NCBI GenBank assembly: GCA_964016885.1
Contig: OZ024740.1
Span: 352,966,001 to 353,030,000 of the forward strand
Direction of reading: 5' to 3'
DNA: 64,000 nucleotides
Source of the DNA: Eledone cirrhosa
Taxonomy: Eukaryota
Made by a program: the position numbers and the translations under genes. Positions 42,695 through 60,497 of the stretch are shown here, one piece after another. The notes under the pieces are model-generated. The model was given only the letters and a program-made list of their open reading frames with translations. It did no database searches and had not been told where the DNA came from. The number at the start of each line of letters is the position of its first letter. The first letter of the stretch is position 1.

Positions 42695-42877
42695 TGTCTT
42701 TAATATTTAAAGCATCTAACAATGGTCTGGCTTTCTGAATTTGCGGTTCCAATTCGGGATGTCTGTAAGGTTCAGCTTCAGCAATTGCTTTCTCCAATTT
42801 AGGTTTGTCCTTTTGAATTATTGATGTTTGTATTTGATCACGCAAAGTTCCAACTTGCTCAGGAGATAAGCTGCCTT
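42695..42877 (-). CDS. repeat exon, 183 nt (QGSLSPEQVGTLRDQI...HPELEPQIQKARPLLDALNIKD)
   Basis: tttttag| and |gtaag, phase 1-1, open frame. Confidence 0.88.
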
Positions 42878-44118
42878 CTAAAAAATCAAATGAAATAAAT
42901 TCAGCAAGGAAACTGTTGGAGAGAGAAACATAAACGAATAGTCATCGAAATATATATTTAGATAGATAAATAGTTTGTGATGGAGTGCTAGCAATATTCT
43001 CTATAGAAACCTTTATGTTATAATTTTTGTGTTCTGATCTGGTGTACATGTATATATTTCACAGACACACACTCACACTTATTTGTACTCACGAGACAAC
43101 ATACACACATACATATATACGTACAGATAACTGATGCTAATCTACAATAAAAGTTATTGAACTGTATACACATTTCGATATCTCAACACTTGTCTAAGAT
43201 TCCATTTAGAGGATTCGTGGCTAGAGCCGTTAAGGTGTTAGAAGAAGTACCTCATGGTATTTAGCTTTCTTCCACTTTATTCAAGTCCCTCCAAGTTCAA
43301 CGTTACTTTTCATATTTTGGGATCGATTTAAGCGAACGCTGCATTCCAAATATTTGTGATCCAGTGTCTCTGTTAAACGTATATTTATTCTTAGTGTACC
43401 TAGCGTTATCTACGAGGAAATAAATATTAGAAAGGCAGATGGACTTTTGAGAATTGTTTCGGAAAAGTGGAGAGTTAACCCATTAAGATATAGCACTCTT
43501 GGTCAGAGGCACATTATCACGTTACACGATACGTACTAAACGACATCTTGGCTTATTGTCTTATATCATTTTTACCTTCAGCGCATTTACCACACGCACA
43601 CACACATACACACACACAATCCCACACACAAATACACAAACTCACACACACAAACACACATACATTCCCCCCACCCATATATATATATATATATATATAA
43701 AACTGAAAGTATGTGTATCAACAAAGTTTCATTATTTTGTGAAGTGAATATTAAATATATTTACTAGGAATAGTTAAGTAGAATAGACAACAGTCGACCA
43801 TAGTGGAAGAGAAAATCGCAAAAACAAATATAAGCACATACGGCACCTATATACATATAATTCGACTCAGATAACACATACACACAAACACACACACACG
43901 CATACATATCGACTTATCCCGTCTCTCTTTATATATATATGCATACACACACACACGCACACACATACACATTTATATATGTATATATCTATCTATCTAT
44001 ATATATAGTTGCGTATGTCTATGTGTGTTTGTTTATTTGTGCTTTTGAGCAAAATTATGTGCGTGTGTACAATTACGAAATAAATGATGGAAATAAAGAA
44101 AAAACAAATAATACTGAC

Positions 44119-44292
44119 GTCTGCGGCCACCACCCAAGGAATCAAGAGCATCTCTAGCTTGCTGTATATTTCTGTTTAATTCTGGAGACTTAGCTGCTTC
44201 TGCCTCAGCAATAGCTCGTTCAAGTCCAAGGACATTTCCCTGTTTAATTGCATTGTCCAGTTGATTTCGCAAGACAGATGGAGATCTTGGAG
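44119..44292 (-). CDS. repeat exon, 174 nt (SPSVLRNQLDNAI...SPELNRNIQQARDALDSLGGGRR)
   Basis: tttttag| and |gtcagt, phase 1-1. Confidence 0.92.
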
Positions 44293-45138
44293 CTAAAAAA
44301 AAACGTAAATATTTGATTAGAAAAATTCTAATTTCATAGTATCATAAAAATGAATCTTCCTAAGTGTTTTTATAAAACCCAGGAAACATGAAGTTTTCAT
44401 TCACATACACGTAACTGAAACCAGCAAATATTATTATTTGTCTATTCACGGATGGCATGTATTATATTAGTTATGATATACATTGCAGTATATTTAAATT
44501 TAATTAAAAAGTGTATTTTCGTGTCTGGGTTAATTTTCTGAATTCATGTGCAGAATAGACCACAAGAATGGCTTTCTTAATCTAACTATTAACAAATGGA
44601 AACTTATGGCGTTATTACAGCATTTAATATGATGTTTGTTTTGGAGAGGAGAAAAAGCATGCTATAAGGGTTAATGTTGTCTACTATATTTTTTTCTGAA
44701 AAGTGTATGGCCCTGAACTCATGTTAGAATGAATTATTAATGTAGCTGCTTTATAATTATGAATTTAAATTTAAATGAAAATAATATTTTTGTATTAGTT
44801 TAGGGTGAAACCAGCATAAAAGAACACGACATGGATGGTTTCCTGTCCCGTTTTTTCCTTTCCTTGTTGTAACACGCGGAATATATTTAATCTCTCATTC
44901 AAATGGTTTTGTCCATTTACCTGTAAATACATATCATGGTGCAGGCAGGGATGATGACTCTCTAATACAGACAACAAGAGTTTTATTATTTTGCACTACT
45001 AGTAGTTTAAGCAACCCTTTTTGCCATGAATTCATCAAAGCAGGGGTAAAAAAAAAAAATCTAGCTGGTACTGTACCAAGCCAGGATTACTTGTCGTTTT
45101 ATTGTCTTTTAAATAAAACATTTGAGAGAGATACTAAC

Positions 45139-45312
45139 TTCTACGTCCACCTCCGATACCATCTACAACATCTCTCGCTTGTTGGACATCTCCTACAAGT
45201 TCTGGATGTCCAGCGGCAACACATTCATTGATTGCTTTTTCAATAGCATAAGGGTCCTTCTGTCTTGTGGCAGACTTAAGTTTGTTCCGCAAAATCTCTG
45301 GAGATGTTGAAC
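45139..45312 (-). CDS. repeat exon, 174 nt (GSTSPEILRNKL...HPELVGDVQQARDVVDGIGGGRR)
   Basis: attcag| and |gttagt, phase 1-1. Confidence 0.9.
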
Positions 45313-45371
45313 CTGAATAATAATAATGATAATAATTATAATGATGATGATGATGATAATGATGATGATAT

Positions 45372-45558
45372 TAATTGTTTCTACTTTTGGCACAAGGCCA
45401 GCAATTATCAGTGTATTACTGGTACTTTATTTTATCGACCCTGTAAGGATGAAAGGCAAAGCTAACCTCGGCGGGATTTGAATTCAGACTGGAAAGAGCC
45501 ATAACTCTATGCTGCAAAGTATGGTGTCCGACACTCTACTCATACTGCCAATCCACCA
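45372..45558 (-). mobile_element. tRNA-derived SINE ending about 60 nt upstream of an exon acceptor
   Basis: Reverse complement of the SINE family with an (ATT/ATC)n tail running into the acceptor. Confidence 0.85.
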
Positions 45559-58289: not shown

Positions 58290-58541
58290 CCCTTTCGTTA
58301 TCATATTTCTAATAAAATATTCTACCTATGAATTTCAATTTCTTTTAACAATATTTAAAAAATGGCGGGGTTAATATAACTAACCTTCTCATTATTACGT
58401 TGGTGTATAGAACATAACTTAAGAGTATTTTCTTAAATGAAATTATAACAGAAAGTTTATATTTAAACACGAACACGTTAAAACAAATAGCTTTTCATCA
58501 TAAAACCAAGGGTGATTTCAGGAGGGTTGATAACAAAAGGC
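58290..58541. mobile_element. piggyBac-like MITE
   Basis: TTAA-CCCTTTCGTTATCA ... TGATAACAAAAGGC-TTAA. Confidence 0.65.
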
Positions 58542-58704
58542 TTAATGTGGGAGAGGTGAAATTCACAAAACTGACTAGCCTAATATAAAGGCGCGCATGT
58601 ATCGAAATCTGATTCTGTGAAGTCTATATTAATCAAGTATTACAATGAAGATAAATATATTTTTTGGATTATACTAAAAGAGAGTAATTGTAAATAAAAC
58701 CAAC

Positions 58705-58878
58705 CTCCACGACCATGGCCTAAACTCTCCAAAGCATCACGCGCTTGTTGCAGATCAAAACAAAGCTCCGGATAGGACGCATCTTCAGCTTCCACTATAG
58801 ATTTCTCAAGAAGGGACTTATTTTTGTGTTTTATAGCCTTTTTTATATGGTCCCGAATTATCTGAGACGATCTGTGTT
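58705..58878 (-). CDS. repeat exon, 174 nt (EHRSSQIIRDHI...YPELCFDLQQARDALESLGHGRG)
   Basis: ctattag| and |gttggt, phase 1-1. Confidence 0.9.
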
Positions 58879-59680
58879 CTAATAGTCAATAAAAGTTGAC
58901 TTTTAAAGCGGTATTAGAAATTTTTAACATTTTAACGTATTTCAAAATAATCTCTCTCTTTCTCTTTCTCTCTCTCGTATTATATATATATATCGAAAAT
59001 ATTACATCGTTTTTTGCTTCTTATATTTCAATATACAATGAATATATTTCTAATATACTAAATTTGAAATGCTAGATAATTATTTTACAAACCTATTGAT
59101 TAGTGCTGGTTTAATTTAGAATATTGCCTATATGTATGTATGTATGTATGTATGTATGTATGTATGTATGTATGTATGTATGTATGAATGTATGGCAACA
59201 CCTTAGTTATTAGGAAGGTTGACTCATAATCGTAAAATCGTGGGTTCGTCTACCGGCGACGCGTTGTGTCTTTGAGCAAGACACTTGTTTTTCACATTGC
59301 TCCAGTCCACTCAACTTGAATAAGTGAGTTATACTTATGATCTAAATGGCCATCCTTCTCACACACTATCAGATTGAATCACGCTGAAAATTATGTTGAA
59401 GGTCCACGTGGAATGATTATCAATTTGAGTGTTAATTCCCCGTGCAGGCTCTTCTGTTGATCAAACAACTGGAACATTCATTATCAGAACCGAAAGAGGT
59501 TCAACACACACACATTTATGTTTGTACTCATTTGATCTCACAATATCCAGTAATTTGCGTTCTATCATGATTGAATAACAGAAACACACCCTAAACAAAA
59601 CTCGAAAATCAGAAACAGATATCACTGAAAGCCCAATGAATAAATAAGCAAGAAAGCGTAAATTAATAAATATAGCCAAC

Positions 59681-59854
59681 CTCCAAAGCCACCTTTCAAT
59701 GTATCAAGAGTTTTCCTGGCTTTCTGGACATCGGAGTCCAACTCAGGAAAACCAGCTGAGACACATTTCTTTATAATTTCTTCTAAGTCCCTAGGTTTTT
59801 TTTCTTTCATAGCTTCTCTCAGTCGGTCTCTCATCTTATGAAGCGATACATTCC
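59681..59854 (-). CDS. repeat exon, 174 nt (GNVSLHKMRDRL...FPELDSDVQKARKTLDTLKGGFG)
   Basis: ttttccgtcag| and |gttggc, phase 1-1. Confidence 0.92.
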
Positions 59855-60323
59855 CTGACGGAAAAAAATTGATGTTGTTTTAGAAGCCATTATTCTGTTT
59901 TGAATTCTGCTTGACTATTATATTTGTTTTTGCAAAAAAGATAGATAAATAGATAGATGGGTGAATGGATGGCTGGATGAATAGAAGGATAGATGGATGG
60001 AAGAATGGATGGAAGGATGGATAAATGCATAGATAGATAGACAGAAAGATAGACACACACACAACACACACAACACACACAACACACACACACACATACA
60101 CACACACACACATTTATATATATATATATAGAGAGAGAGAGAAAGAGAGAGAAAGAGAGAGAGAGAGAGAGAGGGAGAGAAAGAGAGAGAGGGGGGTGAT
60201 GGAGATAGAGAGATAAAGATAGATAGAATGTTAGTTATACAAAGAAAGCTTTAAATGAAATGTGCTGTTCGCGCTGTTTAATTCATGCATTAAGAATTTA
60301 TAAGTGGTTTTGATTTAGCTAAC

Positions 60324-60497
60324 CTCCATGTCCACCACCTAATTGTTTAAGAACGCTCCTAGCTTCGCGCAAGTCATAGCTGAGTTCGGGATATTCAGCT
60401 TTCTCACATTCTATTATGAGATTTTCAATAGCTTGTCTATTTTTCTGTTGCCCTGCTGCTCGTAGCTCGCACCGCAGTTGCTCTGAAGTTTTATCAA
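60324..60497 (-). CDS. repeat exon, 174 nt (DKTSEQLRCEL...YPELSYDLREARSVLKQLGGGHG); the most 5' exon found
   Basis: ggttttcag| and |gttagc, phase 1-1. Confidence 0.92.

Follow-up and report, generated by a model that had tools for sequence, protein, structure and literature searches.

Titin, nebulin and the spectrin-family giants have exon-encoded repeats, super-repeats and a length set by splicing. The octopod gene described here is alike in gene logic, whereas its unit differs, being a three-helix module of 57 aa that matches none of the Ig, Fn3, nebulin and spectrin families of Pfam. Among transglutaminase-like proteins, hillarin and LTD-1 carry an N-terminal LIM domain, and we know of no hillarin, LTD-1 or Cyk3 with such a repeat array. 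Hillarin, C. elegans LTD-1 and yeast Cyk3 are reported to be proteins of the inactive-core type that occur at furrows or at actin-like structures, with a catalytically incomplete transglutaminase-like binding module near actin/septin structures (PMC3718969). The vertebrate kyphoscoliosis peptidase (KY), which shares the transglutaminase-like core and the PF23265 Ig domains with the octopod protein, keeps the triad Cys225-His267-Asp282, is located at Z-discs and binds filamin C (PMC13434911). The spiralian “ltd-1-like” or “KY-like” proteins (Haliotis XP_067666272.1 and XP_067667803.1, Liolophura, Paralvinella, Argopecten) share the inactive-type core, the KY Ig domains, a homologous C-terminal domain and up to six weak helical units. 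These units are few, score 7–33 bits against the octopod unit and form no giant array. In a quick tree of the head, the spiralian ltd-1-like proteins were not resolved as sister to the octopod gene, whose sister group included a unit-free paralogue from O. sinensis. Neither units nor a match to the C-terminal domain were present in the four KY-like fish proteins that the tree contained.

The window, a stretch of 64,000 nucleotides of the Eledone cirrhosa genome, contains 13 repeat exons on the minus strand between positions 42695 and 60497. All of them have AG/GT ends and, as reported in the initial annotation, are phase 1-1 and free of stops, with sizes of 174 nt (nine exons), 171 nt (two), 198 nt and 183 nt (one each). 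An HMM built from 94 O. sinensis units only recovered 11 of these 13 exons (E<1e-3), with no match in 20 shuffled windows; the exons are therefore not a product of chance. The observation held, but the shared consensus was looser than first described, with a mean pairwise identity of 33% (16–51%) and with YPEL in 5/13 units, ECE in 3/13 and the GG pair in 9/13. The number of 13 was itself a large undercount: the array comprises at least 180 repeat exons over 130 kb, of which the window holds the 3' end. The other 167 (u1–u167) lie outside, at C1:353,031,827-353,138,466.

The three most upstream repeat exons of the window, u168 (60324..60497), u169 (59681..59854) and u170 (58705..58878), each 174 nt long, were apparently skipped, u168 being so in the main isoform; the best match of u168 elsewhere was 58% identical, which is the level of a paralogue. 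Exons u171 (57550..57723, 174 nt, 44 bits) and u173 (53339..53509, 171 nt, 40 bits) were diverged. Exons u172 (53884..54054, 171 nt), a local duplicate of u173, and u174 (50072..50269, 198 nt) were degenerate, with only 10 and 15 bits, respectively, whereas 50 better-conserved units taken for reference averaged 83. In a nested O. sinensis model in each case, u173 and u174 found matches of 55% and 58%, respectively. The 174 nt exon u175 (49345..49518) precedes five core units, all of them spliced: u176 (46950..47123, 174 nt, joint 46549/46950), which is 75–78% identical to its orthologues, u177 (46376..46549, 174 nt), u178 (45139..45312, 174 nt, joint 44292/45139), u179 (44119..44292, 174 nt, joint 42877/44119) and u180 (42695..42877, 183 nt, joint 41370/42695). 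The last unit, u180, is without the Gly linker, and its final helix is predicted to continue into the next module (model helix 159–184).

AlphaFold predicted three helices for u177 (H4–17, H20–33 and H36–52, pLDDT 83), in agreement with the three-helix unit proposed earlier. The near-invariant positions (L23, I27, P36, E37, L38, A45 and R46) look mainly structural. The repeat family could not be named in the initial annotation, and no Pfam family was found to fit the unit here either: none was above the cut-off for the 13 window units, a comparison of 62 units gave two families at E<=0.01 which touched at most 2/62, and searches of Pfam, NCBIfam and PDB sequences returned no convincing family. 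The spectrin, TPR, MIT and HEAT families accordingly gave no Pfam match over the cut-off for the window units. The helical arrangement resembled TPR/MIT bundles with a best Z of 7.8, values under 8 being the background level for a helical bundle; this resemblance neither places the unit in one of these families nor sets it apart from them. With Foldseek, neither the unit model nor the tail model matched anything at E<=0.001, and in the ESM Atlas the best score of the repeats was 0.82, with no usable match for the tail. The profile matches included helical-repeat proteins without KY domains, one of them with a myosin head, of low per-unit similarity and possibly convergent. The model of several units and the tail had low-confidence linkers and a pTM of 0.38, a value which may stem from the 14-row alignment instead of flexible linkers. 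The beads-on-a-string arrangement initially proposed fits this model, but the window exons do not form one continuous rod.

Three non-repeat exons follow the array on the minus strand, still inside the window. The 290-nt exon (41081..41370) encodes a degenerate helical unit and the first half of a domain resembling the dynein microtubule-binding domain (MTBD), the 192-nt exon (39846..40037, joint 40037/41081) encodes its second half, and the last coding exon (39145..39426) encodes a Ser/Thr-rich tail and the stop. RNA cover ran on past this exon and reached position 39000 or further in the 3' UTR. The top structural match of the domain model was the mouse dynein MTBD, with 115 aligned residues, an rmsd of 3.1 and a Z of 8.6, which is merely middling for a helical domain. 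All six listed structure matches of model residues 217–344 were dyneins or microtubule assemblies, as were dyneins 10 of the 12 matches of a profile search (best E 0.0013); the pLDDT of the region was 39–71. A dynein-MTBD-like fold is predicted with moderate strength, the likeness to the dynein MTBD (PF12777; PDB 3err, 5ayh, 8i3j, 6l4p) lying in predicted fold and profile over about 115 residues. In contrast to dynein, the octopod protein is without motor, stalk coiled coil and basic tubulin-contact residues at the mapped sites. Reading across the alignments, with a residue numbering which we take to be that of dynein, K3298 corresponds to Asp and R3382 to Leu; other basic residues lie nearby. 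These two dynein residues have been suggested as tubulin contacts (PMC4987762). Because their positions hold Asp and Leu, microtubule binding by the octopod domain appears doubtful.

Units four apart in the array shared an identity of 0.47, against 0.38 for those at odd lags (none of 2000 shuffles reached this), and an alternation of four unit types holds over much of the array. A four-exon block of 1,752 bp, present beyond the window in about 30 near-identical assembled copies (C1:353,082,088-353,133,961), accounts for 119 of the 180 repeat exons.

Orthologues are already in the databases, mostly as uncharacterized or hypothetical proteins: O. sinensis XP_036360723.1 (6,596 aa), O. bimaculoides XP_052825467.1 (5,242 aa) with XP_052825369.1, O. 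vulgaris CAI9725887.1 and Argonauta GAB1600006.1. No publication on these octopod proteins was found in literature searches. They represent the same gene, with last five units 70–91% identical, the same C-terminal domain and the same u163–u176 join; the models examined are without the 30-copy block and most of u164–u175. Their order is a transglutaminase-like core, three KY Ig domains, a charged helical region, 10–94 units (10, 16, 87 and 94 in the models, O. sinensis having 94) and the C-terminal domain. PF01841 was above the cut-off at the N-terminus of the Argonauta, O. vulgaris and O. bimaculoides proteins, three orthologues each contained three segments matching PF23265 (E<=2.3e-64), and the O. 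sinensis N-terminus was the same as in Argonauta and O. vulgaris. The link to KY/hillarin-type transglutaminase-like proteins, suggested in the initial annotation, was thus borne out by this N-terminus. The LIM domain that it suggested looking for gave no match in the full-length Argonauta and O. vulgaris models, where an unannotated upstream exon is possible; the octopod models showed neither a LIM domain, as present in hillarin and LTD-1, nor the SH3 domain of Cyk3. Compared with a fish KY-like sequence, all five orthologue sequences show Cys replaced by Lys and His by Asn, with Asp kept; KY, in contrast, keeps both Cys and His. The Cys site is also lost in E. cirrhosa head exon 2, and the head is likely enzyme-dead, judging from these residues. 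No hydrophobic segment above 1.43 was present in two orthologues, and therefore the protein is likely cytoplasmic.

The RNA evidence came from run X4, taken as RNA by its behaviour and compared with three DNA-like runs, the RNA cover being looked at for 5 of the 180 units. Five GT-AG joints were present in X4 and in none of the DNA-like runs (0/3). Junction reads, named beforehand as decisive for the gene, were thus seen, and they link u176–u180 to each other and to the C-terminal exons. The remaining repeat exons of the window (u168–u175, eight in all) appear to be left out of the main transcript, which argues against all 13 forming one contiguous rod. In the gene models of all four species, u163 is joined to u176. 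GTAAG/GTGAG donors were found in 4/6 core units and in 2/60 of the others (p=0.0003). With every exon in phase 1-1, the reading frame would survive the skipping of any combination of them. Of the two ways of changing length foreseen initially, duplication is visible in the differing unit counts and in the copies of the four-exon block, and skipping appears to affect these eight exons.

We propose, with the balance of the evidence close to even, that the array is the central part, adjustable in length, of a cytoskeletal tether, a giant KY/LTD-1-like protein that is likely enzyme-dead. In this model, 180 or more repeats, each encoded by one exon and predicted to form three helices, with flexible linkers, would make up the middle of a protein which would tether two cytoskeletal anchor points. 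A short core (u163 and u176–u180) would be used by default, cassettes with weak donors would add length, and the array would grow via unequal crossing-over of four-exon blocks. By analogy with the binding of KY to filamin C at Z-discs, the head may bind an actin-side structure, and the tail is a putative ligand of microtubules or of another filament.

It is unlikely, although several observations point that way, that the working protein is short (about 6–16 units), most upstream exons being rarely used by-products of an exon accordion, tolerated owing to weak donors and the kept frame, and the 30-copy block being neutral or partly an assembly artefact. There are 10 units in the Argonauta model and 16 in that of O. 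vulgaris, and the main RNA contig appears to leave out u175, which we infer not to be joined to u176 there. The identity between exons u172 and u173 (67%) does not exceed that between the introns downstream of them (69%), and their dN/dS is about 0.67, and the variants within the tandem block are eight non-synonymous to two synonymous. However, most of u125–u159 have orthologues in O. sinensis or O. bimaculoides, 63–94% identical and in the same order, a conservation similar to that of the core units, and every one of the 180 HMM matches has a phase 1-1, stop-free exon candidate. As assembled, 29 copies of the block fall into 18 distinct haplotypes, and copies 8, 19 and 23 share the same five-variant haplotype, which looks like real unequal exchange. 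The conservation of single units across species, together with their mutual differences, the maintained four-type alternation and the TPR/MIT-like arrangement, would also suit units that are binding modules instead of spacers; a multivalent scaffold would then change in valence, or in its specificity for partners, as splicing picks cassettes from a repertoire. We regard this as rather improbable: the structural resemblance is at helical-bundle background, the near-invariant positions seem structural, thirty near-identical block copies give length or valence and not diversity, and no partner is known.

The connection between head and array in E. cirrhosa rests on the orthologue models. Head exons 1 and 2, the second containing the first part of the transglutaminase-like core, are on the unplaced contig C207. 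No head exon past the second was found in the assembly, a search of 92 kb on the upstream side of u1 revealed none, and about 55 upstream units were not found either. A PF23265 search of the genome listed 17 matches, taken as paralogues, with none at the array locus or on C207. Penelope-like copies, 98% identical to each other, are located where C207 begins and also immediately upstream of u1; their orientation with respect to the gene sense is opposite at the two sites. Together with the annotation of O. bimaculoides as two models, this could indicate that the E. cirrhosa array and C-terminal domain are a separate or truncated gene, severed from the head by a deletion or rearrangement near these young elements. 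Such a severance seems very improbable, as there is a scaffold gap 10 kb upstream of u1, the two head exons are intact and 84% and 91% identical to O. sinensis, single fused models exist in three species, and two of the three genome searches, having a stricter initial step, may have overlooked exons.

For the tethering model that we prefer, a bolder and tentative extension is an octopod protein of titin scale, with an undescribed 57-aa helical repeat, a pseudo-transglutaminase head and a non-motor, dynein-type MTBD-like tail, whose length would be tuned by splicing in each tissue and by four-exon block expansions in each lineage. If all 180 units seen and about 56 missing ones were included, it would have as many as about 14,800 aa. 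The 30-copy block, being young, points to an array that is still growing, so that length variation between individuals would be measurable. A dynein-MTBD-like domain outside dynein is indicated in several invertebrate members of the family, and the model gives the KY/hillarin/LTD-1-like proteins a testable role as tethers. If true, the gene would represent an independent invention, with another building block, of the titin/nebulin design (one exon per repeat, super-repeats and a length set by splicing), in animals that have boneless arms and large neurons and thereby make unusual demands on their cytoskeleton.

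The 13 repeat exons of the window, which correspond to units u168–u180 in the numbering along the gene, were on the minus strand and possessed AG/GT ends. Their sizes, shared phase 1-1 and lack of stop codons were as reported in the initial annotation. With an HMM trained solely on the 94 O. sinensis units, 11 of these 13 exons were recovered (E<1e-3), whereas 20 shuffled control windows gave no hit. The proposed consensus was present in a looser form than claimed, with a mean identity of 33% among the 13 units, and two exons, at 54054 and 50269, were degenerate. Units u172 and u173 (53339–54054) formed a local duplicate pair, the introns downstream of each being 69% identical. 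A nearly pure (TA)n stretch of approximately 1.7 kb (60512–62250) occupied the u167–u168 intron. No host gene was evident in positions 1–38000, where long frames resembled fragments of transposable elements, presumably LINE, Penelope-like and DNA-transposon elements.

The count of 13 held for the window; the array in fact comprised at least 180 units: an HMM run over the window and 200 kb upstream gave 185 rows, of which 180 passed E<1e-3 and were on the minus strand. One unit searched against its own genome gave 150 matches, all on the same contig (OZ024740.1, here C1) and within or adjoining the window. From u1, starting at C1:353,138,466, to u180, a stop-free phase 1-1 exon candidate existed for every unit (180/180, 10,482 codons in total), with a size of 174 nt in 136 and 177 nt in 35, the boundary script being biased toward phase 1-1 and unit size and the boundaries outside the RNA-checked part being predictions. 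A four-exon block of 1,752 bp contained 119 exons (u5–u123), with 30 starts at exact spacing. Divergence among its copies was 0.11%; the 29 full copies represented 18 distinct haplotypes, and a five-variant haplotype was common to three copies. The older part of the array displayed a four-unit rhythm (identity of 0.47 at lags 4 and 8 versus 0.38 at odd lags), reached in none of 2000 shuffles. Together, this rhythm and the near-identical recent block suggest that the array was built by repeated four-exon duplication, both old and recent. The last tandem-block exon, u123 (C1:353,082,088-353,082,270), was a 183-nt hybrid, of the third exon type at its start and divergent near the 3' end, marking a block breakpoint inside an exon with the frame preserved.

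The exon after the array, used as a query, retrieved three octopod proteins at 89–91% identity, and longer octopod models were added through cluster look-ups. The orthologue models possessed 10 units in Argonauta, 16 in O. vulgaris, 87 in O. bimaculoides (without the head) and 94 in O. sinensis (6,596 aa). Full-length models began with a transglutaminase-like core followed by three KY-type Ig domains, the KY/hillarin-type N-terminus that had initially been guessed. When compared with a KY-like sequence from fish, the core had Lys and Asn in place of the catalytic Cys and His, and therefore it is likely a pseudo-enzyme. KY-type Ig domains were also observed at six or more other loci (C1:173.37M, C2:233.4M, C7:7.07M, C13:28.1M, C24:10.28M and C24:15.64M), and these six were absent among the matches listed from the unit searches.

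Head exons 1 and 2 of Eledone cirrhosa were located on the unplaced contig C207. Searches of this genome found neither the other head exons nor orthologues of approximately 55 upstream units (best match 65%), and a scaffold gap was situated 10 kb upstream of u1, so that the putative head–array link in this species rests on the orthologues. A long reverse transcriptase and endonuclease frame, which we take to be Penelope-like, was found just upstream of u1 (about C1:353,138,837-353,140,500), and a copy 98.4% identical to this element opened the other contig (C207:1-1077). The assembly break was probably caused by these element copies. Upstream of u1, at about C1:353,142,600-353,147,700, two stretches of several hundred bases resembled, by eye, inverted copies flanked by long (TA)n runs, with the scaffold gap close by.

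The C-terminal domain, encoded by two exons after the array (41081..41370 and 39846..40037), had homologues in KY/ltd-1-like proteins of Haliotis, Liolophura, Paralvinella and Argopecten (first-round E of 1e-4 in a small local sequence set). Three relatives bearing the domain matched PF12777 below the cut-off (E of 5e-5 to 1e-3), both of the two relatives tested matched dynein chains, and dyneins represented 10 of 12 matches of the family profile. The six structural rows listed over the domain were all dyneins or microtubule assemblies, the top one being the mouse dynein microtubule-binding domain (MTBD; Z 8.6). Two suggested tubulin contacts of dynein align to Asp and Leu, which counts against microtubule binding. 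In InterPro, the Gene3D track may already flag some hillarin-like proteins as carrying an MTBD-like fold. Another protein (P0153, P0166-P0168) combined helical units and this dynein-MTBD-like domain without any KY domain; its N-terminus was cysteine-rich and it contained a hydrophobic, membrane-like segment.

A single unit was predicted as three helices (pLDDT 83), as had been claimed, and the structure search returned no clear structural relative of it (best Z 7.8). In a 344-aa O. bimaculoides stretch spanning the last three units through the C-terminal domain, the units were confident and the linkers weak (pTM 0.38), a result which fits the suggested beads on a string but could also reflect a shallow alignment.

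Read mapping covered positions 39000–47200, corresponding to five of the 13 window exons, with four runs from one study. Run X4, not labelled as RNA in its record, was taken as RNA by its behaviour, with high depth over exons and little over unique intron sequence. Five listed X4 joints coincided exactly with predicted GT-AG introns, and none of the five was among the joints listed for the DNA-like runs X1–X3. Junction reads between repeat exons were present in X4 for the last five units. A 1,344-nt RNA contig consisted of 175 nt, four 174-nt exons, 183 nt and 290 nt. At the u176/u177 joint, the reported side length was 175, which indicates that the exon preceding u176 ends in G and not AG. 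Of the upstream units, u175 is thereby ruled out, and the candidates are u163 and u171; u163 was joined to u176 in the models of all four octopod species. From these two observations we infer, indirectly, that u164–u175 are skipped in the main transcript. The 13 exons had been read as one rod: the last five units were indeed spliced together, but the other eight would be left out of the main transcript. For six of these eight, no match above the paralogue level was found, and u173 and u174 matched a nested O. sinensis model at 55–58%. Consensus-type donors were present in four of the six core units (u163 and u176–u180) versus 2 of 60 others (p=0.0003, in a test picked once the pattern had been seen). 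In at least 119 of the 180 units the donor was GTTAG instead of GTAAG, the exon usually ending in AG; such donors may be a common weak-donor signal for regulated inclusion.

We propose that the protein is most likely a cytoplasmic tether. In this model, the non-catalytic KY-type head would hold an actin-side structure, the helical beads of the middle would vary in number, and the MTBD-like tail would grip a second filament. Tether length would be chosen by splicing, which the symmetry of the exons would permit. The anchor points are suggested by relatives: the respective sources place KY at the Z-disc with filamin C (PMC13434911), the inactive-core-type proteins Cyk3, hillarin and LTD-1 at furrows or actin-like structures (PMC3718969), and hillarin at the axon hillock together with septins (PMC3081291). 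Less likely readings are that the working protein is short and the exon accordion mostly neutral, that the protein is a multivalent binding scaffold, or that the gene is split. The tether remains the preferred reading.

The proteins are already in public databases, mostly labelled uncharacterized. A full-text literature search, with subscription papers outside its scope, apparently returned no paper on them; one paper contains a single mention of a kyphoscoliosis peptidase in skin mucus (PMC11431876). The feature, whose proposed function is conjectural, is real; its gene structure is striking, and it represents a new form within a known family. The solved structure closest to the head was the ciliary central-pair protein FAP246 (PDB 7n6g_6E, E of 5e-14), a further tie between the head domain family and microtubule structures.
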